A DNA stretch of 62,756 nucleotides, the filler included, from Candidatus Coatesbacteria bacterium (GTDB taxonomy: Bacteria; JAFGND01), in assembly GCA_016927185.1 (NCBI GenBank). It is 5 parts of 5 records of this genome, joined end to end, with 100 filler letters (N's around TTAATTAATTAA, not from the genome) between each part and the next. Parts side by side here need not be neighbours in the genome. Positions count along the whole stretch, not along the records: positions 1 to 30,772 come from JAFGND010000001.1; 4 more parts are not named here. The stretch is one strand, 5' to 3'. Each line of letters begins with the position of its first letter. Position 1 is the first letter of the stretch. A model generated the notes under the pieces. The model was not told the origin of the DNA and ran no database searches. It worked only from the letters and a program-made list of their open reading frames with translations. A program made the translations under genes and the position numbers. Below, piece after piece: positions 7,117-53,453 of this stretch.

Positions 7117-7151
7117 AATTGACTGATAGTTGTCAAACATCTCAGTCAATT
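7117..7151. promoter_or_regulatory. 10-bp inverted repeat straddling the prs -35 element
   Basis: AATTGACTGA-N15-TCAGTCAATT. The spacer contains TTGACA on the minus strand (7131-7136). Confidence 0.5.
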
Positions 7152-7303
7152 GCACAGACAAGAAAAATGGAAACTTTTGGCAAGAAAAAAACTCAGGAAG
7201 CTTATCAAGTCAATTATTCTATAAATTCATTAATGGAAAATGCTTCAGGTTTTTTTGGTATCTTTGCTTGACTCTGAATTGCATTTTCAAGTATTTGTTA
7301 CTC

Positions 7304-8632
7304 ATGCAAATTTATTCCACTGATATGTACAGGAAAGCACTTTCTTGCATTTCCATACTGAGGAATAATGGATTCAAGGCATATCTTGCAGGTGGATGTG
7401 TAAGGGACATGCTTCTTGGAATTGAACCAATGGATTATGATATTGCTACTGATGCAAAACCTGATCAGATAGGTAAAATATTCAAGGAAGCCGTCCTTAC
7501 ATGGGGACATCTTGGTGTTGTAATCTTGCCCTACAGAAAGAACAGATTCGAAATCACGACTTTCAGGGGGGATGGTGAATATGATGATGCAAGACACCCA
7601 GTTAATGTTGTCTTCACCAATGAACAGGAAGATGCACAAAGACGTGATTTCACAATAAACGGGATATTTTATGATACTGAAAATGACAAGATAATTGACT
7701 ATGTTAATGGACAGGAGGATCTGAAAAACGGAATAATAAGGGCAATAGGCAATCCAGAAGACAGATTTAATGAGGATCATTTGAGGATAATCAGAGCTAT
7801 TCGATTTGCAGCAAGATTTGGATTCTGTATTGAGAAAGATACTTATAATGCAATCCTGAAATACGCTGACAAGATAGAGACAGTAAGCAACGAACGCATT
7901 TATATGGAACTTACCAAAATTCTTGTTGCTGAGAATGCAGTTGCAGCTTTTGAACTTCTATTTGAAACCAGGATACTTGAAAAAATTCTTAAAGAAGTTC
8001 ATGCATTGAAGGGAGTCAGGCAACCTCCCGAATTTCATCCTGAAGGTGATGTCTGGGATCATACAATGCTTATGCTTAGAAATCTGGGGAAAACTGATAA
8101 ACCTGTACTTGCATGGGCAGTACTCCTGCATGATATAGGAAAGCCTGCTACATACATGGAGACTGACAGGATAAGATTCAATGAACATTCAAGGATAGGA
8201 TCACACATGGCAAGTGATATCTTAAGGAGGTTTCACTGCCCTAACAAAGACAGGGAAACAATTATCTCCCTTATTGATCAACACATGAAATTCATGGCAG
8301 TGAAGGAAATGAGATTAAGTACTCTCAAGAGGTTTTTAAGGCAGGATGATTTTGACTTGCATCTTGAACTTCATAGACTGGATTGCATTTCAAGCCATTC
8401 GAAACTGGATAATTATGACTTCACAATCAGAATGATAAAAGAACTTGCAAAAGAAACTGCAGATTTAAAACCTAAACTTCTTGTTAATGGGGATGATCTT
8501 ATAGAGCTGGGTTTTAAACCAGGACCTCTGTTCAAGGATATATTACGGAGTATTGAAGATGAACAGCTGGAAGGTAATCTTGTTGACAGGGAAAATGCAA
8601 TTGATTGGATTAAAAAAAGATACTTAAGATAA
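7304..8632 (+). CDS. cca: CCA tRNA nucleotidyltransferase with HD domain
   Basis: AYLAGGCVRDMLLG...DYDIAT, EITTFR, DAQRRDFTING, EDHLRIIRAIRF and LLHDIGKP. Likely start ATG 7304. Confidence 0.9.
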   Translation: MQIYSTDMYRKALSCISILRNNGFKAYLAGGCVRDMLLGIEPMDYDIATDAKPDQIGKIFKEAVLTWGHLGVVILPYRKNRFEITTFRGDGEYDDARHPVNVVFTNEQEDAQRRDFTINGIFYDTENDKIIDYVNGQEDLKNGIIRAIGNPEDRFNEDHLRIIRAIRFAARFGFCIEKDTYNAILKYADKIETVSNERIYMELTKILVAENAVAAFELLFETRILEKILKEVHALKGVRQPPEFHPEGDVWDHTMLMLRNLGKTDKPVLAWAVLLHDIGKPATYMETDRIRFNEHSRIGSHMASDILRRFHCPNKDRETIISLIDQHMKFMAVKEMRLSTLKRFLRQDDFDLHLELHRLDCISSHSKLDNYDFTIRMIKELAKETADLKPKLLVNGDDLIELGFKPGPLFKDILRSIEDEQLEGNLVDRENAIDWIKKRYLR

Positions 8633-8644
8633 GGAGCTTTCTTT

Positions 8645-10267
8645 GTGAAAAGTTTTTTTAATAAATATATGCGGGAGTATTTCAGTGGTAGAAAGTCAGC
8701 TTCCCAAGCTGAATGTCGCGGGTTCGAATCCCGTCTCCCGCTCATTATAGTTGTTCTGCTGATATCTATAAATCTTTTTGCAATTGAACCTGTTTATGAT
8801 TTGATTGCAATCGACATGCCATATGATTCAGGAAAAATGATAGCAGTAGGATGGAGACATAAACTTGACAATCAGGATATCAACAAGAACGGAGAGAACG
8901 TAAAGGGATACTTGATATTCAGAAGTGAAGATGGCAAGAATTTTGAAATGATTGGCAATCTTGCATTTGGTATAACTGATACTCAGACTGAAGCATTATG
9001 GAGAGCAAATGGAATAAAGCATCCTTCTTATGGGAGGATTTATTATTCAGATAATGTAGACGAAGACAACAAGGATTATTTCTATAAGGTTAAGGTAATA
9101 GCTCCTTCTGATTCAGTCTGGCAATCAGTTGATATGTGGGCAGCTGGTGATACTTCATATGTACCAGTTCCCAACAGGAAAGAATATTTCACCCGTGCTG
9201 AAGTAAAAGCAGATACCATTCTCTTCAGGGAAATAAACGCAGATGAAAAAAAATATGAACAGAGAATGGTTGAATACGGAGATACAGTCTGGAAGGAAGC
9301 AGAATATGATTCCACAATAAAACCAGTTCCAGACAAGAAAGGCTATTATTTCAAGATTATAAAAGGAGAAACAAAAGAGACTTACAGGATTGATTCAGGT
9401 AAGGCATATAAACTAAAGGTTACAGAAAATTACAGCTCATTTTCAGATATAGTGAAAGCAAATGCTAGCATACAATACTGGGATTGGTCTAAAATGAATA
9501 TTCTTATATTGTCAATTCTGTTCTCTGCAGTGCTTCTTTTTTATATAAACAGAGCCAAGAAAGGAACTAACCTCTTTGTAAGAAGGATCGCAGGATTATC
9601 GGAAGTAGATGAGGCAATAGGCAGGGCAACAGAGATGGGCAGACCAATTCTCTACATATCAGGATTGAGTACTATAGGAGACATTGCCACAATGGCAGCG
9701 ATAAATATACTGGGGGAAGTAGCAAAAAGGACTGCAGAGTATTCAACTCCCCTTATTGTTCCAGCGTATGATGTAATTGTCCTTCAGGTTGAAATTGAAG
9801 TATTGAAAGAAGCTTATCTTCATGCAGGAAGGCCAGATGCTTTCAACAGCGAAGTAAAGGCATTTTTCCTTACTGATTCGCAGTTCGGATATGCTGCTGC
9901 AGTTGACGGGATAATGGTCAGGGAAAAACCAGCAGCAAATTTCTATATGGGAATGTTCTTTGCAGAGAGCCTTATAATGACTGAAACTGGAGCTGCAGAA
10001 GGTGCCATTCAGATAGCTGGAACTGATGCTGTAACACAGATCCCGTTTTTCATTACAAGCTGCGATTACACGCTCATGGGAGAAGAGCTTTATGCAGCAA
10101 GTGCTTATCTATCAAGAGAAGCCAGACTTCTGGGTAATTTGAAAGCAGTTGATTTCATAAAATTGGTGTTCATGATTTCAATTACACTTGGGGTAATAAC
10201 TACTACAATTGGCTGGAACGGGCTGGCTTATATTTTCAATACTGTCATTTGCATTTTTCCCCAATAA
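8645..10267 (+). CDS. membrane protein with extracytoplasmic FN3-like N-terminus and DUF6754-like C-terminal domain; its 5' coding region contains the tRNA-Gly
   Basis: AAGGAG lies 8 nt before GTG 8645 and the frame is open through the tRNA into a signal-peptide H-region (LIIVVLLISINLFA). The conserved-looking segment VRRIAGLSEVDEAIGRATEMGRPILY...CDYTLMGEELYAASAYLSRE was assigned to its family from memory. Confidence 0.8.
   Translation: MKSFFNKYMREYFSGRKSASQAECRGFESRLPLIIVVLLISINLFAIEPVYDLIAIDMPYDSGKMIAVGWRHKLDNQDINKNGENVKGYLIFRSEDGKNFEMIGNLAFGITDTQTEALWRANGIKHPSYGRIYYSDNVDEDNKDYFYKVKVIAPSDSVWQSVDMWAAGDTSYVPVPNRKEYFTRAEVKADTILFREINADEKKYEQRMVEYGDTVWKEAEYDSTIKPVPDKKGYYFKIIKGETKETYRIDSGKAYKLKVTENYSSFSDIVKANASIQYWDWSKMNILILSILFSAVLLFYINRAKKGTNLFVRRIAGLSEVDEAIGRATEMGRPILYISGLSTIGDIATMAAINILGEVAKRTAEYSTPLIVPAYDVIVLQVEIEVLKEAYLHAGRPDAFNSEVKAFFLTDSQFGYAAAVDGIMVREKPAANFYMGMFFAESLIMTETGAAEGAIQIAGTDAVTQIPFFITSCDYTLMGEELYAASAYLSREARLLGNLKAVDFIKLVFMISITLGVITTTIGWNGLAYIFNTVICIFPQ
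8671..8742 (+). tRNA. tRNA-Gly(CCC), no encoded CCA end
   Basis: Full cloverleaf: acceptor GCGGGAG/CTCCCGC, D-stem TTTC/GAAA, anticodon arm TCAGC-TTCCCAA-GCTGA, T-arm GCGGG-TTCGAAT-CCCGT and discriminator U. Followed by CAT rather than CCA. Confidence 0.93.
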
Positions 10268-10318: not shown

Positions 10319-11188
10319 ATGTTGTTATACCTTATCTTTATTGTTACATTATCAGCGAATTTCTGCCCTGAAGAAGCCCCATTCATATGGGAAATTGAAT
10401 ATCCTTCCTTATTTCTAATTCCTCCTGGTTATCTTGGAAAAGGTAATTACAAGTTGAGTTCATCATTCATTCATTATTCAGGTGATAAATATACTGATAA
10501 TGATGGAAACAAGTTCTCTATAGACAGACTGAAAAACAATGAGCTTGAGATTGATTTCAGCTATGGATTAATGAAAAGAGTGGATATCGGGTTTCAGTCT
10601 GGATATATTTCAAGGGAAGACAATCTATATAACCCTTCAACAGGTAAGGGCATAAGCGATTTCAAACTTAAATTGAATTATATGCCTCCCCTGGAAAATC
10701 ATTATTTTACATTGAATTATGGTGTCATGGGTATTTTCAAGACAGGCAAGGAAAGGGATGCTTCAAATCTCGGGACAACGCTAGGCTACAATGCTCTTGA
10801 TCAGAGATTTACGGCTTTGTTTCCCATAAACACCAAGCTGAACGCAATGCTTGAAGAAAGATTTACTGTTCCTCTCGAGGAAACTGAAAATGGTTACAAG
10901 GGAACACTTAGTTCTTCATTGTCATTGGGTTACAGGATAAAAAAACTGAGACCTTCAATAGAATCTGCGTATATTTATGAAATGGGCAAGGAAAACATGA
11001 ACAGCAGGAACCTATCTATAGGAGCAGGATTGGGAGTTAACATACTCAAATCCCTGCTACTGAAAGTGGGTTTCAGGAATGATTTTCAAGGAATCAATTC
11101 AAGATTAAACAGGAATTTTGCTGTCTCTCTGACTTACTTCAGTAATCCTTGTTCCTGTTCTATTCCTTGCCCTCAACCATTTGAATAA
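10319..11188 (+). CDS. putative outer-membrane beta-barrel/transporter-like protein
   Basis: Signal peptide, alternating beta-strand pattern and GISDFKLKLNY...KTG motif typical of MetA-pathway phenol-degradation-like barrels. Confidence 0.6.
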   Translation: MLLYLIFIVTLSANFCPEEAPFIWEIEYPSLFLIPPGYLGKGNYKLSSSFIHYSGDKYTDNDGNKFSIDRLKNNELEIDFSYGLMKRVDIGFQSGYISREDNLYNPSTGKGISDFKLKLNYMPPLENHYFTLNYGVMGIFKTGKERDASNLGTTLGYNALDQRFTALFPINTKLNAMLEERFTVPLEETENGYKGTLSSSLSLGYRIKKLRPSIESAYIYEMGKENMNSRNLSIGAGLGVNILKSLLLKVGFRNDFQGINSRLNRNFAVSLTYFSNPCSCSIPCPQPFE

Positions 11189-18522: not shown

Positions 18523-21500
18523 ATGCAAAAGCTTATGATAAGAATTTATTCCATATTACTCTTATTGACATGCATACTCGAAGGGGAAACTTCAAGAGGG
18601 ATTAATTATAAATATCCTGTAATATCTTCTCCTACATATATATATTTCGGAACTCCACTAGGTCTTCTTAAATACAATATTGAACACAAGGAATGGAGTT
18701 TTGTTACAGGCAAAGTCCTTGGTGGAAATAATGTAAGACAAATTGGGCTTGATGAGGATTATCTTTATGTAACCACAGAAGAAGGACTTGCAGTTTCAGA
18801 CATCAGGTTGAATGACTGGAGAGTATTCAGGAAGGAAATTGCTGAATTGCCTGTTAATGATATATGTTTCTCAACCGATTATGTCTTTCTTGCCTGTGAT
18901 GGAGGTTTGTCATTATGGGACAAACTTGGTCAGGCATGGAAAACTGCTCTTGAAAATGAAAAAGTATATTGCATTCAGGTTGTAAAGGACAATCTCTGGT
19001 TAGGCACTGAAAAAGGAATAAAATCCTATTCAATTAAGTTTGAGAGATTTACCAAATACGACAAGCAGGGTCTGCCAGCATGGAGATTTCATTCAATTGT
19101 ACAAACCCCTTCTTTCATATGGTTCATAGCAGATGAAGGACTTATACGTTATAACAAGGAACTGAAATCATTCAAGAGTTATGCAGCTTCTGCCAGTCTT
19201 CCTGTTTCAAGGGAAACAATCGGTTATGCATCCGCAGAGGAATTCTGGTTATTGAATTCGAAAGCGGATAAGAATGGAGTGACTATACTTAAATATGAAA
19301 CATCGCAGGATAATTTCTTCCCTTATATATACTTCGATAGATTACCCTCCAGCAAAATCAGCTCAGCAATAATGTCTTCATCAGACTGCTATTTCGCTTC
19401 AGATAAAGGACTTACAAGATACCTTTCATCTGAAAAGGACTGGAAGAATTACAGCCTTACTGATGGATTGTCATCTGTAAATATTGAACAGGTTTTCTTA
19501 AGCGGTAATACAATATTCTGTATCAATGAAAAGGGTATAGATAAAGGGGAGCTTGATAAGAATCAATGGAGACAATATTCCTGGGATAATCTTACAAGTG
19601 TTTCTGCATTCTCATTCCTTAATATGACAACAGACAAGGATGGCTTGACCACGAAATTTGCCGAGAAAACCAATCTTCAGATAAGGGGAAACAGTTCTCA
19701 TTATATCAAGGGTGAGAAAGAAACCGATAGCCAGAAGGACAGCAAGAATGATGTAAATGCAAGATTCAATATTGATGAAAAACGTTCAATATCAGGTTTT
19801 TATAATGATACGGATGAAGATGATGTAGAATGGGGGGCGACTTACAGGGGAGCAGACAGGGATATATTGAAAGAGGCATCAGTAGGTGAACAGAGGATGG
19901 CATATTATCAGAACAAGATAATAAATCCCATTACCATCAAGGGTGGTTCTGCATATCTGCAGGCCTTTTATTTTGAGGAAGAAAGCAATCAATCCAGATT
20001 GTATTTAAAAAGCTGGGCTGGCGAGAGGATTAGTGCGAAAACCAGGGATTATTTCAAGGGAAAAGGCAGAAGCGGTTCTACAACAAGAAACGATACTGAT
20101 TATCTTGGTAGCATTTACAGACTTACCAGAACAGGAATAGTGCCAGATGAACCTCATAAAATGGAAATCTGGCTTGATGATGGCAATCAATCCAATAATA
20201 CAAGGGATACAAGATTACTTACAATTGAAAACCAGAGAGGAAATTTTGACAGATTAAATCCAGGAATAGACTACTACTATATAAAAGAAGACAATGTTCT
20301 TGTAATGCAGAAGAGTGTTCCATCATCTGGATTGCTTGCTGCACATTTCACATCAGATGGAATTGAATACTGGATATTAATTGCATCTTCTTCGCGTTCA
20401 CAGGCTTTGACGAATTATTACAGTTCAGGTGGCAAGAAGATAATTCCCCATTCTTTTCATTTGTCTATAAGAGATAGTCTTGACAGAAGCATTTCATTGT
20501 CAAGATTCGGACTTGATAGAAACAGTGATGGAATGGTTGATGAGGAGTTTTTTGATTTTCAAAATGGCATACTTCATTTCCCTCAGGAAAAGCCTTTCAA
20601 TGCAGGTTGTTATGATCCGGATAATCCCGTAAGTACTTACAGATTAACTTTTCAATACGAAACAGAGATAAGTATTTTCTCTCTCAAGCATCAGGAAATA
20701 ATCCAGAATAGTGAAACTGTATACCTTGACAAGCTCCCTTTAGACAGGGGCAATGATTATATACTGGATTATTCCACAGGATCACTTCTGATTATTGATG
20801 AAAACCTGCTTTCTACAAACAGCTTTCTTGAAGTAACATATGAATTAGAGAAGAAAACCGGTCTTGATTTGTATGCAGGTGAGCTAGGCATACAACCTTT
20901 GAAGCAGGCAAGACTGGGTGGTAATTATATCAGATACAAGAGCAGGCACTTCTCAAGCCAGAGTTTGAGAGTAGATTTGCCAGGACCTTTCAAGGACAGT
21001 TCCATAAGAATTGAGCCTGAATTTGCCTTAAGCAAGCAGGATACAACAAATGCTGCTTATGCTGGAAGAGGAGAAATTCAGTTAAGATCAGATATCATGC
21101 AGGTTTTTATTGATTATCTGAGGAATACGGAGAAATTCGAGAATCTTGACACATTATATAATTCAGGTGGAGCAATAAGAGATAGAATAAGCGAGGAAGC
21201 TACAGTGAAGCCATATTCCTGGCTTCCGATAAGCATTATTTGCGGATTAGAGACTTCCTGGGCTGATTCCATTGGATCAGAAAGATTGCTTAAGAGCAAG
21301 AGTTTTCAAGGAGAAATCTCTGAAAACAAACCCGAATTTCCTTCCATGACACTGACTGCATTGAACTGGTCAAGAGAGGAAACTGAACAAGATGTAGTAA
21401 CCAATATGGGAAAAAGCAAGATATCTTATGATTTGCCAAAAGAATTACTGGATAACGTGAAAATATACAGTCTGAATATAGAGGCATTCTATAAAAGGAA

Positions 21501-22611
21501 CTGGATCAGCGAATATTTCACATATGAAGATTCTCTGCCAGACGTGAAATCCCAGGAATCTACATGGTATACGCAGTTCAAGATTTCTCCCATAAACAAT
21601 CTTTCTGCCTCAGTCAAATTCGAGGAAGGAAAAACAAAAGACGACAGGGCATCTCTTCCATGGCATACCAGCCAGCTTGGAAGGGAATTAACACTAGAGA
21701 TTACAACTGATGCCTTGAAGGGATTTTATTTCAAGGAAACTCTTGAAGGTCAATATGATGATTTTTCATTGCAGCTTTCTCCATTCATTGTTGAGGAAGA
21801 ACAGAGAAGAAAGATAAAAAGTGAAATTAAATTCTATCCTGGACAATATTATACTCCAATGAATTTCATATCATTGATTTTTGATATAAATAATGAAAAA
21901 AACGGCTGGATAAGAAAGGGAGCTAATGGAAGTCTCAAAGATATCATTTTCACCAACTGGAATGAAAGTGATTTTTTATCTCTTTCTGATCCAACAATTT
22001 ACGGTATTGGAACTGAAATAACACCTTTCTCTCAGTTAAGCCTGAGCTCCAGATATGACTTTGGAAAAAGCGAGGAATGGAATTATGATACAGAAAAACT
22101 GCTTAATCTGAATACATTGACTAACAAGATTATAATGAAACCCAAGGATAAAACACAAATAACCTTAAAGGAAATAGATACATGGAATCATGAAGAACAG
22201 GGTGCAAAAACTGTAAAGCATAATCCCTGGATTTCATGGCAGGAAAACTGGAGTTCTTTGCTTCTAAGCAATCTGGCTTTCACCTTCAAGAATGAAAGGG
22301 ATTCATGGATAGAAATATGGGAAATAAAGAGAAGCTATGGTCAAAGTCTATCTCTTACTTTCAATTTCGGCAAGCATAAATATATTGGAGAACTTATTGT
22401 AATACCAGCATTTAACCTGACGAGACAGAATAGCTGGGACTGGAACAGCTACAGCAGAAGAGATGCAATGTATCTTGACTTGAATATAGACTGGAATCCC
22501 CTAAGTTTCATAACAACAAGACTTTACTCAACTGCTATTTATTCAAAAACAGATAATGAAACCTCAAAATGGAATTATCAATTCTCTATGGAAGGAAGTA
22601 TTCATTTCTAA
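18523..22611 (+). CDS. large outer-membrane protein with N-terminal beta-propeller, SprA-like central motifs and C-terminal beta-barrel
   Basis: Signal peptide, GL...N.V repeats, IIQNSETVYLD..PL.RG.DY.LDY.TG.L...LEVTYE and LNPGIDYY motifs, a beta-rich C-terminus and a terminal Phe. Confidence 0.6.
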   Translation: MQKLMIRIYSILLLLTCILEGETSRGINYKYPVISSPTYIYFGTPLGLLKYNIEHKEWSFVTGKVLGGNNVRQIGLDEDYLYVTTEEGLAVSDIRLNDWRVFRKEIAELPVNDICFSTDYVFLACDGGLSLWDKLGQAWKTALENEKVYCIQVVKDNLWLGTEKGIKSYSIKFERFTKYDKQGLPAWRFHSIVQTPSFIWFIADEGLIRYNKELKSFKSYAASASLPVSRETIGYASAEEFWLLNSKADKNGVTILKYETSQDNFFPYIYFDRLPSSKISSAIMSSSDCYFASDKGLTRYLSSEKDWKNYSLTDGLSSVNIEQVFLSGNTIFCINEKGIDKGELDKNQWRQYSWDNLTSVSAFSFLNMTTDKDGLTTKFAEKTNLQIRGNSSHYIKGEKETDSQKDSKNDVNARFNIDEKRSISGFYNDTDEDDVEWGATYRGADRDILKEASVGEQRMAYYQNKIINPITIKGGSAYLQAFYFEEESNQSRLYLKSWAGERISAKTRDYFKGKGRSGSTTRNDTDYLGSIYRLTRTGIVPDEPHKMEIWLDDGNQSNNTRDTRLLTIENQRGNFDRLNPGIDYYYIKEDNVLVMQKSVPSSGLLAAHFTSDGIEYWILIASSSRSQALTNYYSSGGKKIIPHSFHLSIRDSLDRSISLSRFGLDRNSDGMVDEEFFDFQNGILHFPQEKPFNAGCYDPDNPVSTYRLTFQYETEISIFSLKHQEIIQNSETVYLDKLPLDRGNDYILDYSTGSLLIIDENLLSTNSFLEVTYELEKKTGLDLYAGELGIQPLKQARLGGNYIRYKSRHFSSQSLRVDLPGPFKDSSIRIEPEFALSKQDTTNAAYAGRGEIQLRSDIMQVFIDYLRNTEKFENLDTLYNSGGAIRDRISEEATVKPYSWLPISIICGLETSWADSIGSERLLKSKSFQGEISENKPEFPSMTLTALNWSREETEQDVVTNMGKSKISYDLPKELLDNVKIYSLNIEAFYKRNWISEYFTYEDSLPDVKSQESTWYTQFKISPINNLSASVKFEEGKTKDDRASLPWHTSQLGRELTLEITTDALKGFYFKETLEGQYDDFSLQLSPFIVEEEQRRKIKSEIKFYPGQYYTPMNFISLIFDINNEKNGWIRKGANGSLKDIIFTNWNESDFLSLSDPTIYGIGTEITPFSQLSLSSRYDFGKSEEWNYDTEKLLNLNTLTNKIIMKPKDKTQITLKEIDTWNHEEQGAKTVKHNPWISWQENWSSLLLSNLAFTFKNERDSWIEIWEIKRSYGQSLSLTFNFGKHKYIGELIVIPAFNLTRQNSWDWNSYSRRDAMYLDLNIDWNPLSFITTRLYSTAIYSKTDNETSKWNYQFSMEGSIHF

Positions 22612-30772: not shown

Positions 30773-30872
30773 NNNNNNNNNNNNNNNNNNNNNNNNNNNN
30801 NNNNNNNNNNNNNNNNTTAATTAATTAANNNNNNNNNNNNNNNNNNNNNNNNNNNNNNNNNNNNNNNNNNNN
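30773..30872. other. artificial contig linker
   Basis: N44-TTAATTAATTAA-N44, a stop-codon linker. Confidence 0.98.
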
Positions 30873-32940
30873 GAAATTCTTCTATTGCATTAGTAAGAAT
30901 TATATCAAAAATCCTTCTATCTATCCATCTTGATGAAACAAGCTGAGCCAAAAAACCTTTTTCACTAATATGCTTAGATGCTTCTTTATAGAATTCCCTG
31001 GAATAAAATCTATCCTGTCCCAATTGCCATATAATTCTGGAGTCCATTATTATTATATCGTATTTATTCTTGTTCCACATCAAGTAAGTAAACTCATCTT
31101 CTTTAAAGTGATTAAACTTATTTTGAGAAGAATTCAAACTCAGATTCGTTATCTTGGATATTTTCTGGAAAATATTGCTATAGGGTGAAACAAAGTCCAC
31201 ATTTCTGTTTGCAAGAAAAGACAAACTATACTCAATTAATCCAGATCTGTCTCCCAGGACTAATGTATTGTTTGATTCTATAAACATGTTTGGTATTGTG
31301 CTTAATAGTACTGGGGCTGAAGACAGGTTTTTGTTATTGAAATTGATTTGTCTAATACCGTTTATAAATAACTCATATTCTCCATCTTCTTTCTTATTTT
31401 CATTTTCAATCAACATATAATTCTGGATTATATCATCTTTATGAAAGACCACATTTCTCTTTTCCTTGTTATTTATAAAAGCCTTGAATTCAATAGATTG
31501 CCATTGACTATGTATATTCGTACTCCATAAACCTAAGGAAACCCATGGGCTTCTCATATAAAGGAAAACTATTATAATGGCTAAGACAGAGAAACTTAGA
31601 AGTGTTTTGTATCTTTTTTTCCACACTGGGGAAGAAAAAAGAAGTAAAACTCCAAATAAAAAAGACATTATTACATTCAAGAAAAAAGCTTTTTTGATTC
31701 CCCAGCTAGGAACTACAAGTATTTGAGTAAGGAATATTCCTGCTATGCTTCCCCATAAAAGGTAATTAATCATTCTTGATAGTGATGCTCCCTGTGCTTT
31801 TGGATTGATTGTCATCAAATCTACTGTCTTAATAAAACCAGATACTAATAGAGATACAGGTGGAATTATAAAAGAAGACAAAAGGAGAAAAATAAAAGCG
31901 TTAATAAAATAAAAGGTTATTCTTGTGTGATAGAACCAGTGATTTATATGTTCTATCCAATAAGGAAGTCTTGGATACAGGATAAGGCTTAGCATGAAGC
32001 ATAGGGATGATATGAATGAAGTCACTCCCCATCCTGGCAATACAGATTGTATCTTAGTACTTCCTTTGAAATTCAAGATGCATCCTATTCCAAGAGAGAG
32101 AAGAAAAATAGTATTAATAAGAATAAAAGTGATTTGATTAGAAAAGAGGATTATAGAGAAGAGTTTCTGCCAAAGTATCAGGCAAGCACCAAGTACCCAT
32201 CCAAGCATCAAGCAAGCTATCAATATCATTTTTTTCTGTGCTTGCGAGAAAGCTTGTTTTGATGAATAAGCTCCATTTCCTTCATCTAATTCTCTCTTCA
32301 AAATGGCAGGATGAGCCCATGTTGATCTCAATAAAGTTAATCCCACTATTATCACTAAATATAGCAAAGATGTCGCTATATAATACAACTTGAAAGTGAA
32401 ATAATAGCTACCAACCAGCAATGCATAAACAAGAAGACCTAAGCATGATGAAAAGAAGTAGATGCAAACAGCTTCAATAATCACTTTCTTGAAATCTTGT
32501 GTCAGTTTTATTATGTATCTGGTGAATAAAATTATATTTGAAGAAATAAAAAAACAAAAAGGAATAATTATTAATGAAATCCAGATAATTTTTAAAATGC
32601 TTAAACCAGGGCTTCCTTTAAAAGCAGCTTGTCCTATATATATATATATTGGATTAATCAATCTTAAAACCTGTTCAAAACAAAGCCACCAAATCAAGAA
32701 TCCACATTGTGATATTATATATAATCTCAGTATGTCTTTTGAAGTATCGCTTTTCTTCCCCCAATAGCTTAATCCTGAAATAAAACCTATTATTATCAAG
32801 AAAGGTAATGAAATAGATGTAAATAACGTATACCCCGAATAATAAAACGAAATCCTGATTGCATAAATCAATGCAGGAAAAGCAATCAATCCTGAAAGGA
32901 AAAGAGAAATTGATAAGATAATGTTAATCCTCTTATCCAT
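30873..32940 (-). CDS. multi-TM protein fused to a spermidine synthase-like domain (3' truncated by contig end)
   Basis: About 13 TM segments then LFING...LVLG..SG...KYDIIIMD...FYSREFY. Confidence 0.75.
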
Positions 32941-32944
32941 GACT

Positions 32945-34849
32945 TCATTCAGACAAAGCTATAACTTTATCTTCATCCTTTACTATGAATTTCTCATCTT
33001 TGTTCAAATTAATACGTATATTATTCTCTTTCCGAGTATTCTGGATAATACCGAGGGCTACATCTCCCCTTCTCTTTGCTGAAGCTATTAATTCCGCAAA
33101 AGTTGCGGTCTTATTTATTGGAAGATAATATGAAACAGGTTTTAGATAAATCTCATAACCTTCTGGATTGAATAATTCCCGGAAAATTTGATTAATACTC
33201 CTGTTCTCACTTATTTGTGAAAAAATCATTGAAATCAGTTTATTACTTACTATAAAATCATTTATTGCGGATATTGTAGCTAATTCCTTGTTTTTTATTG
33301 AAAGAATCTCTGATGAAATATTTACTTCAGATCTTCTTTCAGGATATTGCTGCATGATCTCCCTTAATATCAATAATACTATCAATGTTTTTGCATCAGA
33401 AGATTCAAGATTGTCATATAAAAGCTGATCACTCAATATAATAATGCTGGTAAACGAAATAGGATCAATATTAAGTAATTCCTTTTTTCTAATTGGTGAA
33501 CCTTTCTTGTATTCTATATTCAGATTATTCAGATCTCCTACTACTTCTTTTATATATTTATTTGCAAATTCCTCCTCTTGCTCACTAAATATCAAGCAGC
33601 TTGAACCTTTAGATACATATTGATCCAGCTGCTGCAAGATAAATGCTATCTCCCTTGACCAGTTAACAAGTAGAAACCTTTCAGGAATATGAGCATCATC
33701 TACTGATAGTTTTGATTCATCGGGAAGAACGGGTGGAGATTTATATGAAATCTTCAAAGGATAATCATCTTCCATCATTATTATAATCCTGTCATCTCCA
33801 CGTATTATTTCTTCATCAGGAGGATTTAGCTTATGTTTACCGTTTCTCACTAATCCTATCAATGTTCCATTATCTATAGCGAACATGGCGCTGTAGTAAG
33901 TTTTGCCTGATAGTTCTTTAGGTACATCAACAAAATAAAACTCACTTCCCTCGAAAGAAAGCAGGTGCTCATATATTAAAGATAAACCAGATTGCCTTGC
34001 TGTCTGGACAACAATCCGGGAAATGATACCACATGAAAAAACTATTTCCACTTCCTTTCCAAGAGTTTCAAAAAGCTGTATATTCTCTTCATTCTGAACT
34101 TCTACTATAATTTGAAATGGTTCAGTTCTCCTATTTGGATGATTCAAAATAGCCATAATCACTTTGAGATTTCTTGTATCGCTATCCAGAGCAGATCTGT
34201 TACTTTCTTCATCTCCTATAATCAATATTGCCTTAGTTTCATTGAAATTAACCATCTCCAAACTAGCTAAATCTATAGGATCTCCTGACCTGAATATTAC
34301 CTTTGTAGTCTTGAAGTCATCAATTTTGAGTTTCACAGCATCTTCCATTGTCTCCTTGTCTTCATCTGCAAGAATAACTATTTTGGCAGAAGCCTGGTTT
34401 TCGTTAGCTCTTATCAGTTCCTCAACAATAGTGAATATCTTGTTATTCCATCCAATAATTAATGTATGATTACTTTCTATTACAAAAGTTTTCCCCTTCT
34501 TTAATTCAGAAATCCTGCTCTCAATCTGGCTTGTCAAAAGACCTATCAACAGACTCATTAACAGAATTCCTAAAAGAGTTATGAAAAAGACAACAAAAAG
34601 AAATCCAAGAGGTGGATTTTCATGAGAAGCTATTGCACCAGGATCAATCAAATGAGTGAATGCATACCATATTGCCCTTGATGCACTACCATTGACTTTT
34701 GCATCTGCCAATATTCTTATCCCAACTGCTCCAAACAAGATTATTATTACAGACAGAACAACAAGTCCAATTATTTGTGAATATGGATTTCTAGAAAAAA
34801 AGTCATCCAGGTAATAAGAGACTCTTTCCTTGAGTGTTATTTTTTTCAT
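32945..34849 (-). CDS. CASTOR/POLLUX-related ion channel
   Basis: W..FTHLIDPG pore region, LKKGKT.VIE.NHTLIIGWN, two RCK-like domains and G.EIYLKP. Confidence 0.85.
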   Translation of the reverse strand: MKKITLKERVSYYLDDFFSRNPYSQIIGLVVLSVIIILFGAVGIRILADAKVNGSASRAIWYAFTHLIDPGAIASHENPPLGFLFVVFFITLLGILLMSLLIGLLTSQIESRISELKKGKTFVIESNHTLIIGWNNKIFTIVEELIRANENQASAKIVILADEDKETMEDAVKLKIDDFKTTKVIFRSGDPIDLASLEMVNFNETKAILIIGDEESNRSALDSDTRNLKVIMAILNHPNRRTEPFQIIVEVQNEENIQLFETLGKEVEIVFSCGIISRIVVQTARQSGLSLIYEHLLSFEGSEFYFVDVPKELSGKTYYSAMFAIDNGTLIGLVRNGKHKLNPPDEEIIRGDDRIIIMMEDDYPLKISYKSPPVLPDESKLSVDDAHIPERFLLVNWSREIAFILQQLDQYVSKGSSCLIFSEQEEEFANKYIKEVVGDLNNLNIEYKKGSPIRKKELLNIDPISFTSIIILSDQLLYDNLESSDAKTLIVLLILREIMQQYPERRSEVNISSEILSIKNKELATISAINDFIVSNKLISMIFSQISENRSINQIFRELFNPEGYEIYLKPVSYYLPINKTATFAELIASAKRRGDVALGIIQNTRKENNIRINLNKDEKFIVKDEDKVIALSE

Positions 34850-35157
34850 TTCTTCCTCTCAATATTCTTTTTCCTTGAATCTCTCCACCACTTCAAATAT
34901 GCACATTTTGATGGTAAATATCTCTTGGATTTTACCTGGGAAAGCTTCAATTTCTTGCATTCTGGATTTATTTCAAATCTATTTTTATAAATTTTACATA
35001 ACATACTTTCCATATCCAGGTATTGACATGGAATATCCGTGAAAATAAGCCTTCCATTACTGTCATAATACTTTTCAAAACAGCAAGATCCGCATTTTAA
35101 GCAGATAGCCTCCCATTCCTTAGTAGTTATCTTATCAAGTTTTATTGATTTTGCCAA
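34846..35157 (-). CDS. YkgJ/YcgN-family cysteine cluster protein
   Basis: WEAICLKCGSCC...PCQYLD....CKIY..RF...PEC...LP..CAY. Confidence 0.85.
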   Translation of the reverse strand: MAKSIKLDKITTKEWEAICLKCGSCCFEKYYDSNGRLIFTDIPCQYLDMESMLCKIYKNRFEINPECKKLKLSQVKSKRYLPSKCAYLKWWRDSRKKNIERKK

Positions 35158-37577
35158 TGGTCAAGAAGCCTTTGGGCTTTTGCTTTTACTTCGTTCTCAC
35201 CTCTATTGACAGCCAGGTTCAGCAATCCCCTAACCTGATCCAATTTATAGTTTGCTAAAGCCTCCAATACTGCTATCTTGGTTTCAATCAGGGGTTGACG
35301 ATTAAAAATCCTCCATTCATTTAGAATTGCTTCAAAATAAACCAATGCTTCTTTATTCTGCATTTTACCAAAGGTTTTTATTATTGTCTTTTTCATAGTG
35401 CTCATATCCTGATCAGACATCAATTCCTCTTTCATCTTTCCTACCAGTTTCTGCTTGGTAGACAGGAAAGGAGAGAGAACATATACTGTCTGATCCCCAC
35501 CCCATCCAGAAAGAAGCTCAATGGCTATTACTCTTATTCCAAGTATTGGATCTGTGGTTGCAATTTTAAGCAAGGTATCTTCAATCTTCTCTCTTGGTCC
35601 TGGTAGTGCAGCAATAGCTTCCAGAGCAGTCTGTCTTAACTGTTCATTCTTGTCTTCCAATGTAGGCAATAATAAAGTAAATTCCTCCTCTGTTCCTACT
35701 TGACCGAGTAATTTTAAAATCCTTATCTTTGCAGTTGTTCCTGCCTGTGGAAGAACCCTTGCAAGAGGACCTGTCAATTCAGTTCCAAAGCTAAGTAATA
35801 CCTGACTCAAAATATATGCTCTTGATGGATCCGGCTCTTCTGTCAAATATTCAATCAATCTGGGAATAGCAGGCATTCCAAGAGTTATAAGGACTTCCTT
35901 GACTTCAGTTTTAAGATCCTCATGTCCGAATGCCTCTATAAAGGATTCAAGGCTTTCAATACCCCAAACCTCAGCAAGTGTTTCCAGTATCTTCCTTTTA
36001 GCTCCAGCTGGAATTATCGAAAATGGTTTCAGCTGATATTCAAGTTCTCTTTTTATTAATAGCAAAACCTCTTTCTGACCTCTCGATTTCGCCAAGGTAG
36101 CTTCTTTACTCAAGCAACTGACTAAACCTTTGAGAATATTAGCATTTTTTTCTGTTTTTAAGTGCTTTGCCAGCAATTGGGCAAGTTCAAGAGAAAGGAA
36201 TTTCTCAAAATAAGCATCCATCCTTGCAAGTATGAATCTTATTACATTGAGTCTTGTTTTCAGGCTCTCATCATCCATTTTCCTGTCTATGCTCAAGATC
36301 ATCTTCTCGAAAAGCTCATCCTGTTCTGAAGTATCCTGGTTTTGTGTTTGAAGTCTGTTAAAAGTTGATTCCTTAAGCAGAACTACCCTGTTATCCTTGC
36401 CAACCTGTTCAAGTATTCTTACACCAATGTCATCAGTCATGTTTTCTTCTTTCAGTCTTCCTTCTATTATCTTGGAAAGTTTTGCTATCCTGTTATTATC
36501 AGCTTCTTCAACTGAAGACATGAAATTATTGAGAATCTTCACCTTGTCTTCATCATTAGTATGGATTTCCTTTACATCTCTGTATCTTGATACAACCAAC
36601 TCTATCAATTGTTCATCACTCATGTTCTTGATGGCTGTTCTGAATATTGTACCCATAGAGGAGTCATTTTCATAATCCTGCATAACTCTTTTGTATACAT
36701 TAGGTTCTAGACCTGCTGCAATCTGAGTTATTTGCTTGGCATAATTTTGCCAGTCTTTTCCACCCTTGACTCTGAAAAGAACGCTTGTCATACTTTCAAA
36801 AGCTTTTACTATCTCATCATCTTTCTGTTTCTCTCCTCCACCTTTAACTAAAGCTTCATTGATTGCATTAACTAATTCAGGTCCTAATTCTTGCTCATCT
36901 AGTATTCTTTCCCTCAAACTTGGATTCAGACCTATTGCCATCTGAGCCATTTTCTTAGTCATTTCATCCCATTTGTCCTTTCCATACAGGCTCATCATGC
37001 TTTGTGCTAGACTCTTGAAGGCAGCAATAACCTGCTCCTGGACTGGATCTTTTCCAGTCTGATCTTCCGTTTCTTCATCAGGAGTAAGATATTTTGTATA
37101 GTCCAGAGTTGTTAATCCTCGTGTTTTAGCTCCTCCCTGCCCTATTATTCCAAACTGCACTTGGTTTATTCCAATCTCATTAATTCCCTTTTCTTTCAAT
37201 AGATCAGCAGCCGTTTTCTTTTCATTTTTTCCAATCGTAGTTGCAAGAAACTGGAGATGTGATGAGGTTAAACCATATCTGAATGAAACAGATTCAATCC
37301 CTCGTTTCATAAGTCTCTTTATATAACTACCAAGAATTGGATTTTTTTCAGGATCAAATTTGATATTGTTTGCAATCATCTTGCTTTCGAAAACTACTAA
37401 GACTAACTCCCCATTTTTCTTGACCCAGTTATTTATCATTCCTGAAACCTGATCGAATATCTTCAATGGATGAGGATGTCCAGCAGGATAAGTAATAAAA
37501 AGTTGTGTTCCAAGCGATAGCTTCTGAACTATATCACCAATGTCCTTGGCAAGTTTCTCGTCAATTTTTTCAGTCAT
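35142..37577 (-). CDS. HEAT repeat protein
   Basis: N-terminal YPAGHP motif and C-terminal HEAT-like helical repeats (L.D....LR..ALEAIA). Confidence 0.75.
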   Translation of the reverse strand: MTEKIDEKLAKDIGDIVQKLSLGTQLFITYPAGHPHPLKIFDQVSGMINNWVKKNGELVLVVFESKMIANNIKFDPEKNPILGSYIKRLMKRGIESVSFRYGLTSSHLQFLATTIGKNEKKTAADLLKEKGINEIGINQVQFGIIGQGGAKTRGLTTLDYTKYLTPDEETEDQTGKDPVQEQVIAAFKSLAQSMMSLYGKDKWDEMTKKMAQMAIGLNPSLRERILDEQELGPELVNAINEALVKGGGEKQKDDEIVKAFESMTSVLFRVKGGKDWQNYAKQITQIAAGLEPNVYKRVMQDYENDSSMGTIFRTAIKNMSDEQLIELVVSRYRDVKEIHTNDEDKVKILNNFMSSVEEADNNRIAKLSKIIEGRLKEENMTDDIGVRILEQVGKDNRVVLLKESTFNRLQTQNQDTSEQDELFEKMILSIDRKMDDESLKTRLNVIRFILARMDAYFEKFLSLELAQLLAKHLKTEKNANILKGLVSCLSKEATLAKSRGQKEVLLLIKRELEYQLKPFSIIPAGAKRKILETLAEVWGIESLESFIEAFGHEDLKTEVKEVLITLGMPAIPRLIEYLTEEPDPSRAYILSQVLLSFGTELTGPLARVLPQAGTTAKIRILKLLGQVGTEEEFTLLLPTLEDKNEQLRQTALEAIAALPGPREKIEDTLLKIATTDPILGIRVIAIELLSGWGGDQTVYVLSPFLSTKQKLVGKMKEELMSDQDMSTMKKTIIKTFGKMQNKEALVYFEAILNEWRIFNRQPLIETKIAVLEALANYKLDQVRGLLNLAVNRGENEVKAKAQRLLDHWQNQ

Positions 37578-50963: not shown

Positions 50964-53453
50964 ATGACTAAACATCTAGTTCCAATTTATATAGAAGAAG
51001 AGATGAAAAAATCCTATCTGGATTATGCCATGAGTGTTATTATAAGCAGGGCATTACCAGATGTAAGAGATGGCTTAAAACCTGTTCACAGAAGAATACT
51101 TTTCGCAATGAATGATATGGGGCTTCAGCATAACAAATCCTATAAGAAATCAGCAAGAGTCATTGGAGAAGTGCTTGGTAAGTATCACCCTCATGGAGAA
51201 ACTGCCATATACGATGCAATGGTTCGTATGGCACAGGATTTTTCCTTGCGTTATACACTTATTGATGGACAAGGGAATTTCGGTTCCGTTGATGGAGATG
51301 AAGCTGCTGCCATAAGATATACGGAGGTAAGGTTATCAAGAATAGCTGAGGAAATCCTTGTTGACCTTGAAAAAAATACAGTGGATTTCAAGAGGAATTT
51401 TGATGATTCACTTGAAGAACCAGAGATATTACCTTCAGCAATTCCTGATCTTCTAATAAATGGAGCCCATGGTATAGCAGTAGGCATGGCAACTAATATC
51501 CCTCCGCACAATCTTGGAGAAATAATAGATGCAACAATAGCTTTAATAGATAATCCTGAAATGGAATGTATAGAACTTCTCAATTTCGTAAAAGGTCCTG
51601 ATTTTCCAACTGCCGGGATAATATATGGTTATGAAGGAATTAAGGATGCCCTGTTAACAGGAAGAGGAATAATAACACTCAGAGGCAAGGCAGAAATAGA
51701 GGAAAGCAAAAGTGAGAAATTCAGAATTGTAATAACTGAACTTCCTTATCAAGTAAATAAAGCAAAACTTATAGAGAAAATCGCTGATCTTGTCAGGGAA
51801 CAGAGAATTGAAGGTATTTCTGATCTCAGGGATGAATCAGACAGAGAAGGGATGAGAATTGTTGTTGAACTGAAGCGTGGAGCTAATCCCAATGTTGTCC
51901 TGAACCAGTTATACAAACATACTTCTCTTAATACTTCATTCGGAGTAATAATGTTAGCTTTAGCAGATGGAATACCTAAAGTTCTTAATTTAAAGGAAGC
52001 TATAGGATATTTTATTGAACATAGACATGAAGTTGTTGTAAGAAGAACTCAGTTTGATCTTGATAAAGCCAAGAAAAGAGCACATATATTAGAAGGGCTG
52101 AGGATAGCATTAGATCATATAGATGCTGTCATAAATTTAATAAGGAAATCAGCTGATGTTCAAGTAGCCCAGAATGGTTTAATGACAAAATTCGGTCTTT
52201 CGGAAGCTCAGGCAAAAGCTATTCTTGATATGAGATTGCAGAGACTAACAGGGCTTGAAAGACAGAAAGTTGAAGATGAATACCGTGAATTGGTCAAGAC
52301 AATGGAAGAACTGCAATTCATACTTTCAAACAAAGAAAAGAGAATGTCAATTATAAAAGAAGAACTGCAAATCATAAAAAATAAATATGCAGATAAAAGA
52401 AGAACCCAGATAATTCCATCTACTTCAGAAATAGCTATTGAAGATCTGATCCCTGACGAGGAAGTTGTAATAACTGTTTCGCATGATGGTTATGTTAAAC
52501 GTATTCCTCTTGAAACATACAGAAAGCAACGCAAGGGAGGCAAGGGTGTATCCGGAATCACAACAAAGAAAGAGGATTTTGCAGAGCAGGTTTTTGTTGC
52601 CTCTAATCATGAATATTTGTTAATCGTAAGTAATATAGGAAGAATCTATTGGCTTAAAGTTTATGATATTCCTCAATCTGGAAAACAAGCCAAAGGTACT
52701 GCATTCATTAACCTCATTCAGATAACCGAGGATGAAAAAATAAGAACCATACTTCCTTTAAGGGATTTTGATGTTGCCCAGTACTTAATATTTGCAACTG
52801 AACAGGGCTTGGTAAAGAAAACCCTTTTATCTGCTTATTCAAAACCAAGAAAAGGTGGTATTAACGGAATAAAAATAAGACCTGATGATCAGGTTATTCA
52901 TGTAGCAATAGGTTCAGATGACAAGGATCTCATTCTATCATCATACTTCGGTCTGGCAATTAGATTCAGTATTTCAAAAGTAAGAGCTTGTGGAAGAAAT
53001 AGCATGGGTGTTATAGGAATGCGCTTGAATAGAGCAGATAAAGTGATCGGAATGATTGTTGTTCCTTCGGTTGAGGAAGAGACTAATCTAACACTTTTAA
53101 GTGTCAGCCAGTTTGGATATGGAAAGAGGACTGAGCTTTGTCAATATAGAAGAACAAACAGGGGAGGAAAAGGGATAATTACTCATAAAACCTCAAGAAA
53201 GACTGGCAGCATTATAGCGGTCAAGGAAGTAAATCAAGATGATGAGTTAATGATAATAACAACTGGAGGCAAAATAATCAGGATTTCCATCGAAAGCATA
53301 AGAGAATTAGGTAGAAATACAATGGGAGTGAAACTAATAAATCTCAATCAAGAGGATTATGTTGTAGATGTTGCCAAGATAAAAAAAGAAGAAAATGAAG
53401 ATAATGATCAAACAAAGCTATTTGATGAGGAAAATGAAAACAATAATGAATAG
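50964..53453 (+). CDS. gyrA: DNA gyrase subunit A
   Basis: [29 protein letters not shown] and GyrA-box QRKGGKG. Confidence 0.97.

Follow-up and report, generated by a model that had tools for sequence, protein, structure and literature searches.

Can a tRNA gene and the beginning of a protein-coding gene occupy the same nucleotides, on the same strand, in such a way that both are used? This question is raised by a locus of Candidatus Coatesbacteria bacterium (GenBank assembly GCA_016927185.1) that we analyzed within a stretch of 62,756 nucleotides joined from five parts of that genome (hereinafter, the window; GC content, 35.5%). At this locus, a complete gene for a glycine transfer RNA with the anticodon CCC, tRNA-Gly(CCC), 72 nucleotides in length, occupies positions 8671 to 8742 of the plus strand and lies entirely within a plus-strand open reading frame (ORF) of 540 codons (8645 to 10267) that comprises an 8-codon leader, the tRNA stretch, the hydrophobic core of a signal peptide, an N-terminal outer domain and the DUF6754 domain. 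The reading that we favor, and consider probable from the comparison of sequences, is that translation starts at the GTG codon at 8645, continues through the tRNA gene and produces a protein with a long, cleavable signal peptide, and that maturation of the tRNA and translation compete for one and the same transcript.

By all signs in its sequence, the tRNA-Gly(CCC) is functional and no relic. It was the sole tRNA detected by ARAGORN in the whole window (as tRNA-Gly(ccc), 8671-8743, plus strand), and the Rfam model RF00005 spans 8671-8742 end to end (model positions 1-71 of 71), with a score of 71 bits against a gathering score of 29 (E = 3.8e-15). The anticodon (8703-8705) is located in a loop of 7 nucleotides, and the discriminator base, U73, is position 8742. 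The glycine identity set consists of U73 and the base pairs G1-C72, C2-G71 and G3-C70, and the acceptor stem GCGGGAG/CUCCCGC found here, together with the discriminator U, matches this set. The minimum free energy (MFE) fold of the tRNA has a value of -28.5 kcal/mol (z = -3.6); the weak D-stem, in which UUUC (8680-8683) is paired with GAAA (8691-8694) in the Rfam alignment, is not drawn in the MFE fold and rests on the covariance model. No CCA is encoded, U73 being followed by CAU, and ARAGORN, Rfam and the sequence itself agree with the initial annotation of this DNA, which had reported a full 72-nucleotide tRNA-Gly(CCC) lacking an encoded CCA. The accompanying claim that this tRNA needs the enzyme encoded by the gene upstream is true, but it holds for any tRNA gene without an encoded CCA and is not specific to this locus. 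The tRNA has decoding work to do because, in 32 ORFs of the window, 110 of the 991 glycine codons are GGG.

The DUF6754 frame is open through this entire gene. The proposed start of the DUF6754 precursor, GTG 8645 (8645-8647, plus strand), is the first in-frame start codon past the stop of the upstream gene and the sole candidate with a Shine-Dalgarno-like sequence, an AAGGAG at 8631-8636 of the plus strand, from which it is separated by a spacer of 8 nucleotides. The upstream gene, which encodes a nucleotidyltransferase, ends in the same frame as the DUF6754 ORF with a TAA at 8630-8632 that overlaps the AAGGAG, an overlap that had already been described. The canonical in-frame starts are GTG 8645, ATG 8669, the final base of which (8671) is G1 of the tRNA, TTG 8801 and ATG 8816, and there are no others; when the in-frame codons were checked, no canonical start was found from the end of the tRNA up to the hydrophobic core (8744-8782), the codons after 8743 being ATT ATA GTT GTT CTG CTG. 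Thus, the ORF and codon lists agree with the earlier claim of an uninterrupted frame that contains no ATG, GTG or TTG from the tRNA to the core. A 5- or 6-mer of the AAGGAG/AGGAGG type stands ahead of an early candidate start in 16 of 41 long ORFs of the window, and, of the 53 copies of AAGGAG that the two strands of the 62.8-kb window contain together, 12 lie ahead of the start of an ORF of at least 100 amino acids; the organism uses Shine-Dalgarno sites. At 53 copies per approximately 125 kb of strand, the chance of an AAGGAG at a useful spacing from a given start is about 0.3%, and that of any 5-mer of the AAGGAG family, estimated from the same counts, is about 1%. Ahead of 8744, there is no purine-rich Shine-Dalgarno site, the preceding bases being those of the T-arm and the acceptor stem of the tRNA, and no Shine-Dalgarno site is found ahead of ATG 8816 either. 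The open frame by itself is unremarkable because one of the other two frames through the tRNA is open as well, the remaining one being closed by a UAG in the D-loop (GGUAG).

The remarkable feature of this locus is that a rare, compensated change in the tRNA, U10-A25, falls in exactly the frame that needs it. Positions 8-10 of the tRNA (U8 A9 U10; 8678-8680, plus strand) form the in-frame codon UAU (Tyr), and U10 (8680) pairs with A25 (8694); with respect to this codon and its compensating A25, which the initial annotation had pointed out, the sequence and the Rfam alignment are in agreement. In the DUF6754 frame, the usual U8-A9 followed by G or A would turn this codon into UAG or UAA, and the frame stays open because position 10 of this tRNA is U, not a purine. 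For a survey of tRNA-Gly(CCC) genes, we used a pattern that takes structure into account and also matches the tRNA of the window; it was applied to three phylum-level groups of genomes that were reached via distant DUF6754 loci and need not be the nearest kin of the organism. Position 10 is a purine in all 110 tRNA-Gly(CCC) surveyed in 258 genomes, and the tRNA of the window departs from them with U10: all 89 matches in the phylum-level group of genome G001 (232 genomes) have G or A at this position, and the 21 matches in the group of genome G003 (26 genomes) comprise 13 with A10-U25 and 8 with G10-C25. With a pyrimidine at position 10, the pattern had no match in the third group (401 genomes, a count for which there is no denominator); there were likewise 0 pyrimidine-10 versus 13 purine-10 tRNA-Gly(CCC) in IMG/VR, none with a pyrimidine among the four best phage-collection matches, all of which have a purine, and 0 matches to the D-arm DNA pattern of the window tRNA in the JGI metagenomes. 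The possibility, raised at the outset, that U10-A25 is common elsewhere is thus contradicted by 0 of 110 tRNAs in 258 genomes. As a separate observation, the first D-stem pair of tRNA-Gly(CCC) is evolutionarily labile in one phylum-level group of uncultured bacteria (A10-U25 in 13 of the 21 cases, from genomes G002-G005 and their relatives), yet it is purine-pyrimidine in all the cases seen there.

Immediately behind the tRNA, the ORF encodes the hydrophobic core and c-region of a predicted signal peptide, IIVVLLISINLFA (8744-8782, plus strand), which align with the N-terminal signal peptides of family members. The predicted signal peptidase site, A/IEP (the slash marks the cleavage), falls between 8782 and 8783; LFA/IEP is common to homologs, and the A/IEP ending is present also in the family members P0067, P0091 and P0098. 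Removal of 8671-8742 would give MKSFFNKY-IIIVVLLISINLFA, so that the earlier claim that excision of the 72 nucleotides leaves a textbook signal peptide follows directly from the sequence. With the tRNA in place, residues 1-33 include seven Lys or Arg and three Glu and precede the core IIVVLLISINLF (delimited by inspection), and an n-region of 33 residues is atypical but would still allow export. A hydrophobic region is located within the first 15 residues in 109 of the 121 family proteins (at offset 0-4 in 65, 5-9 in 24 and 10-14 in 20). It comes later in the two other members of the subfamily, P0002 (offset 27) and P0121 (30), in P0092 (22) and P0009 (69), and in three proteins at 15-19, and is missing in five, namely, P0001 and some truncated gene calls.

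The subfamily of the window protein has, in the protein database, only these two other members: P0121, a protein of 540 amino acids from a Logan contig, identical to the window protein in 491 of 540 positions, and P0002, with 545 amino acids, from an NCBI contig of 2831 nucleotides, approximately 70% identical. In the comparison with P0002, the core reads IIVVLLISINLFAIEPVYDLIAID versus VILLLLSSL-LYSLEPIYDFSVID, with hydrophobic replacements, one in-frame codon insertion or deletion, and the signature EP.YD..ID kept, and we conclude from this pattern of conservation that the hydrophobic stretch behind the tRNA is coding. With a conserved coding core from 8744 onwards, a protein start is therefore needed at or before 8744. 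The protein sequences of both relatives include the translation of the tRNA, likewise in this frame; the stretch in the window is MREYFSGRKSASQAECRGFESRLPL, in which P0121 has K in place of E and P0002 has F in place of L. Codons 8669-8743 encode 25 residues, 24 of which P0002 shares with the window, whereas for the adjoining N-terminal domain the identity is only 52%. The n-region of a signal peptide is usually the least constrained part of a protein, so the conservation of the tRNA-encoded residues must come from the RNA and, as far as the translations of the relatives reveal, this stretch appears to be under purifying selection at the RNA level across the lineages.

The two replacements are themselves intelligible in terms of the RNA. 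The E to K replacement in P0121 amounts to a change of G57 to A in the T-loop, where both TTCGA and TTCAA are seen among the surveyed tRNAs. The L to F replacement in P0002 amounts to a change of C66, which lies opposite G7, to U; the resulting pair is G-U or, in the event that GAG has become GAA, A-U. Both P0002 and P0121 keep the Tyr at the codon of positions 8-10 and the Lys at the codon that has A25 as its middle base; the frame is open in both, and there is no trace in these relatives of the G10 or the in-frame stops that the initial annotation had suggested looking for. Altogether, in the three independent assemblies that represent the subfamily (3 of 3), the frame has a start ahead of the tRNA and remains open, and the core follows the tRNA with zero spacer.

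Beyond these, two scans of genome contigs yielded no close relative and only 9 distant DUF6754 loci, a protein scan of metagenome contigs yielded no further relative, and residues 1-200, used as the query for shorter protein fragments, gave none. The 9 distant DUF6754 loci are devoid of tRNAs and of homologs of the upstream gene, and none of the four tRNA-Gly(CCC) loci of genomes G002-G005 includes DUF6754. The organism itself appears to belong to a deep, poorly sampled lineage: the best non-self matches of its GyrA (50964-53453) are 59-60% identical and scattered over Ignavibacteria, Calditrichota, Zixibacteria and Bacteroidota.

Four sequencing runs, one of them an RNA library, were compared with the locus as contigs, which carry neither RNA ends nor strand. 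The upstream gene and the tRNA are bridged by a contig of another study (X2), which extends over 7784-8724 and has 9 differences, none of them past 8611; the tRNA and the ORF are bridged by a contig of the RNA library (X9), which extends over 8669-9021 and shows 28 differences as well as one gap. The two tRNA junctions are thus bridged by X2 and X9, and P0121 and P0002 span the whole stretch, which speaks against the misassembly that had been envisaged as a source of error. The X9 contig is compatible with an unprocessed tRNA-mRNA co-transcript; DNA carry-over is possible. An end of an X9 contig at 8677 and the start of the next one at about 8664, near the expected RNase P site 8670/8671, were not counted as an RNase P end, the depth being 3-7 and gaps frequent; an X3 contig (8714-8827) and an X1 contig from 8715 were not counted as bridging, with fewer than 31 letters on the tRNA side. 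Near-identical DNA occurs in sediment and biogas-fermenter runs of separate studies.

What we infer from this arrangement is co-transcription, initiation at 8645, cleavage of the signal peptide and competition between two fates of the RNA. The nucleotidyltransferase gene, the tRNA-Gly(CCC) and the DUF6754 gene would be co-transcribed, and a ribosome loading at the AAGGAG (8631-8636) would initiate at GTG 8645 and cover the 5' half of the tRNA as the RNA emerges. It would translate the eight leader codons, then the 72-nucleotide tRNA gene, and then the hydrophobic core at 8744-8782; the 24 residues encoded by the tRNA, basic overall, would form the unusually long n-region of a Sec-type signal peptide, and the signal peptidase, cutting at LFA/IEP, would discard this tRNA-encoded n-region and leave the mature protein unaffected. 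RNA that is free of ribosomes, or lies between them, would fold into the cloverleaf, to be cut by RNase P at 8670/8671 and by the 3' endonuclease after 8742, with CCA added subsequently. Such excision would leave the body of the message without its start codon and turn the upstream fragment into a non-stop message; each transcript would therefore give tRNA or protein, not both. The two exclusive fates proposed in the initial annotation would indeed follow from the known chemistry of RNase P and 3' processing if read-through occurs, and to that extent they are a prediction; the accompanying idea of a regulatory switch finds no backing in the form of any sign of regulation.

A self-sensing version of such a switch is conceivable, although we rate it as rather improbable. 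The tRNA gene contains an in-frame GGG codon (8720-8722), which is the codon read by tRNA-Gly(CCC), and the speed of the ribosome over this codon and four rare codons might decide whether the transcript serves as message or as the source of new tRNA. The supply of charged tRNA-Gly(CCC) would then partly set how long the cloverleaf stays unfolded. Should this be the case, the supply of a tRNA, the neighboring enzyme that acts on tRNA 3' ends and the output of an envelope protein would be coupled in a single RNA.

Several observations weigh against translation through the tRNA. The tRNA-embedded stretch includes four of the rarest codons of the window (CGG, CGC, CGT and CCG, at 0.8, 1.0, 1.8 and 1.9 per thousand, respectively), and these rare codons and the stable structure of -28.5 kcal/mol would both slow translation. 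Of the 8 residues of the leader, 3 are not shared by the window protein and P0121, which are 91% identical overall, and the leader resembles translated AT-rich spacer. An n-region of 33 residues is exceptional in a family in which 65 of 121 proteins begin directly with the hydrophobic region (offset 0-4). The deposited annotation (P0001) begins at ATG 8816, and in P0002, the Val directly after the tRNA could be a GTG start, GTG accounting for 12% of the Val codons in the window. Furthermore, the comparison involves three lineages only, all derived from one ancestor that already had the arrangement. Upstream of the tRNA, the case for coding consists of 8 poorly conserved codons and a good AAGGAG-GTG; downstream of it, coding is indicated by homology and conservation.

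Another interpretation, the main rival of the one that we favor and in our view unlikely, is that the tRNA is an ordinary upstream neighbor and the protein starts at a non-canonical ATT (8744) or ATA (8747), either on the intact transcript or, in the manner of mitochondria, on a leaderless mRNA whose 5' end is generated by 3' processing of the tRNA at 8742/8743. The upstream GTG and the open frame through the tRNA would then be unused for protein. A start at ATT or ATA gives M-(I)VVLLISINLFA/IEP, a signal peptide that resembles those of the family in length and style (P0012, for instance, has MNIFLILLLTLS/IEP), in line with the 65 of 121 proteins at offset 0-4. The zero spacer between the tRNA and the core in three lineages is what a 5' end defined by processing would require, and the poor conservation of the leader codons and the Val, possibly a GTG start, as the first codon after the tRNA in P0002 point in the same direction. 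However, no ATG, GTG or TTG is present at this site in the window, and probably none in P0121, where the residues are I-I-L-V; nor is there a Shine-Dalgarno sequence before 8744, although the organism uses them. Leaderless initiation in bacteria strongly depends on a 5'-terminal AUG, and AUU and AUA starts work at about 1% or less of the level of AUG. Above all, starting at ATT or ATA leaves the unique pyrimidine at position 10 (0 of 110) and the well-spaced AAGGAG-GTG as coincidences. It may be added that leaderless downstream messages are foreseen also in the model of Mukai for another tRNA within an ORF, as presented in the passages of PMC8124441 on that subject. With either start, GTG 8645 or ATT/ATA, the mature protein after LFA/IEP is identical.

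We find it far less credible that the protein starts at ATG 8816 (8816-8818, plus strand), has no signal peptide, and follows an untranslated spacer that is open by chance. This is the start used in the public gene call P0001 (483 amino acids), and the Met is conserved in P0002 and P0121. Yet the region 8744-8815 is conserved as protein and aligns with the signal peptide and the first mature residues of homologs, and the large N-terminal outer domain ahead of the membrane domain would, presumably, need an export signal; a Shine-Dalgarno site is, as already noted, missing here. The Met in question is probably an internal one, being part of the family motif D-[TNM]-P-x-D, and P0065 has the same DMP motif behind a signal peptide of its own. 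Presumably, P0001 drops the signal peptide since the tRNA was masked before gene calling; the Logan-derived call of the 91%-identical variant (P0121) retains all 540 codons.

Still more improbable, in our view, is that the tRNA is a frame-preserving intervening sequence, after the removal of which an RNA ligase joins 8670 to 8743 to give MKSFFNKY-IIIVVLLISINLFA. The length of 72 nucleotides, a multiple of three, does preserve the frame on removal and leaves a textbook signal peptide, and cleavage by RNase P and the 3' endonuclease would leave ligatable ends, a 3'-OH and a 5'-phosphate. Against this stands the result that a joint of 8670 to 8743 is absent from the contigs of all four runs, the RNA library included, an observation of limited weight given that rare forms may be dropped from contigs; the more speculative proposal of the initial annotation thus gains no support from this source. 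Splicing of this kind is not known from bacteria, we noticed no ligase gene beside the locus, and an intron would need no open frame through the tRNA, which leaves U10 unexplained. Finally, the notion that the whole arrangement is an artefact, a chimeric assembly at the tRNA or a decaying tRNA pseudogene, is in our view very improbable: contigs in all runs do tend to break in the tRNA (X1 ends at 8715; X2 ends at 8724 and resumes at 8787), a pattern typical of a sequence that occurs in the tRNAs of other organisms as well, but P0121 (Logan) and P0002 (NCBI) are independent assemblies, X2 bridges 8671 and X9 bridges 8742, and the tRNA, with its 71 bits and all stems intact, shows much stronger conservation than the protein sequence on its flanks.

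Around the tRNA, between 7130 and 11188, the ORF list has three closely packed plus-strand ORFs. The DUF6754 protein consists of two parts behind its signal peptide. The N-terminal domain (8783-9493, plus strand) is presumably extracytoplasmic, and it is lineage-specific. The only similarity noted in this domain is to FN3, in short matches, and HMMER, run in full against 1.84 billion representatives, returned its own cluster and short repeat-like matches only. The membrane-embedded C-terminal half (9470-10228, plus strand; residues 276-528) is a DUF6754 domain (PF20539), with a Pfam score of 371.5 bits against a gathering score of 27; a literature search retrieved no paper that mentions DUF6754.

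The upstream gene (7304-8632, plus strand) encodes a class-II nucleotidyltransferase with the Pfam PolyA_pol head, RNA-binding, HD and tRNA_NucTran2_2 domains; its start is uncertain, with candidates from 7130 to 7325, and it is at most 39% identical to its counterparts in five genomes. The top NCBIfam match is the CCA tRNA nucleotidyltransferase, with 265.9 bits against the model cut-off of 290, and the gene probably codes for a CCA-adding enzyme; thus, the label 'cca' given to it earlier is likely from the best match but cannot be certified at a score below the cut-off. GTG 8645 comes 12 nucleotides after the TAA of this gene, a layout in which the nucleotidyltransferase and the DUF6754 precursor could well be translationally coupled. 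The downstream ORF of 289 amino acids (10319-11188, plus strand) has its own AAGGAG and a hydrophobic N-terminus and probably belongs to the same operon; neither Pfam nor NCBIfam has a family that it matches, and the DUF6754 and tRNA loci compared contain no homolog of it. A promoter and terminator scan gave 13 promoter-like sites versus 12.6 expected, none of them convincing ahead of the tRNA. Elsewhere in the window, there are very large ORFs of 1362, 707, 634 and 811 amino acids (18523-22611, plus strand; 30817-37577, minus strand) that have no NCBIfam match at E <= 1e-10.

If translation through the tRNA does take place, a single stretch of 72 nucleotides is subject to two kinds of selection, for the shape of an RNA and for an open frame, and U10-A25 would be a visible trace of this double constraint. 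The n-region of a cleaved signal peptide is perhaps the sole site in a protein that would tolerate 24 arbitrary residues, which hints at where more overlaps of this kind might lie. Annotation pipelines that mask tRNAs before gene calling truncate such proteins, and at this locus the public call loses the signal peptide.

Several known systems share some of these features. In the thrU-tyrU-glyT-thrT-tufB operon of Escherichia coli, tRNAs and a downstream protein gene are on one transcript, and processing releases the message; unlike the case described here, however, those tRNAs are in an untranslated leader, and the protein gene has its own downstream ribosome-binding site and start. Autotransporters have extended signal peptides, in which a long charged stretch precedes a normal core and cleavage site. 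Those extensions are conserved peptide motifs, whereas the sequence of the extension described here is dictated by a tRNA. A message delimited by tRNA processing is known from the tRNA punctuation of mitochondria, where excision of a tRNA defines or destroys the neighboring messages, and where a tRNA in direct orientation can lie within a coding region, as does the tRNA-Lys inside cox1 of Armadillidium vulgare (as cited in PMC8124441). In mitochondria, AUU and AUA starts do occur immediately after a tRNA. At the 5' end that 3' processing of the tRNA would create in the window, ATT, ATA, GTT and GTT come first, none of which is a canonical start, although AUU or AUA might be used. Mitochondria have compact genomes and relaxed initiation, whereas the present case comes from a bacterium of the free-living type, with 35.5% GC, ordinary spacers and genes led by Shine-Dalgarno sequences.

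The only bacterial precedent that we found in a full-text literature search is selC within selB (PMC8124441). According to the relevant passages of that article (Mukai 2021), the selB ORF of many Alphaproteobacteria is predicted to include the whole of selC, the gene for tRNA-Sec, at its 3' end, and the proposal is that tRNA processing competes with full-length translation and leaves two messages, one upstream that is truncated and one downstream that is leaderless (PMC8124441). In both cases, a whole tRNA is located on the same strand within one bacterial ORF, the arrangement is conserved in relatives, and the two proposed fates of the transcript are alternatives; both are computational predictions. 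The differences are equally instructive. The selC gene occupies the 3' end of selB and encodes a C-terminal extension of a protein, SelB, that itself binds tRNA-Sec, whereas the tRNA-Gly(CCC) occupies the 5' end and the signal-peptide n-region of an unrelated membrane protein, that of the DUF6754 family. Here, a compensated U10-A25 pair removes an in-frame stop, and no such change is mentioned for selC in the passages of PMC8124441 that deal with selB. The consequence of excision differs as well: processing of the tRNA-Gly(CCC) would deprive the message of its start codon, whereas in selB, by the account in those passages, the tail is lost (PMC8124441). Provided that read-through occurs, the locus described here would join the predicted selC in selB as only the second bacterial protein ORF that contains a whole tRNA, and would be the first with the tRNA at its 5' end.

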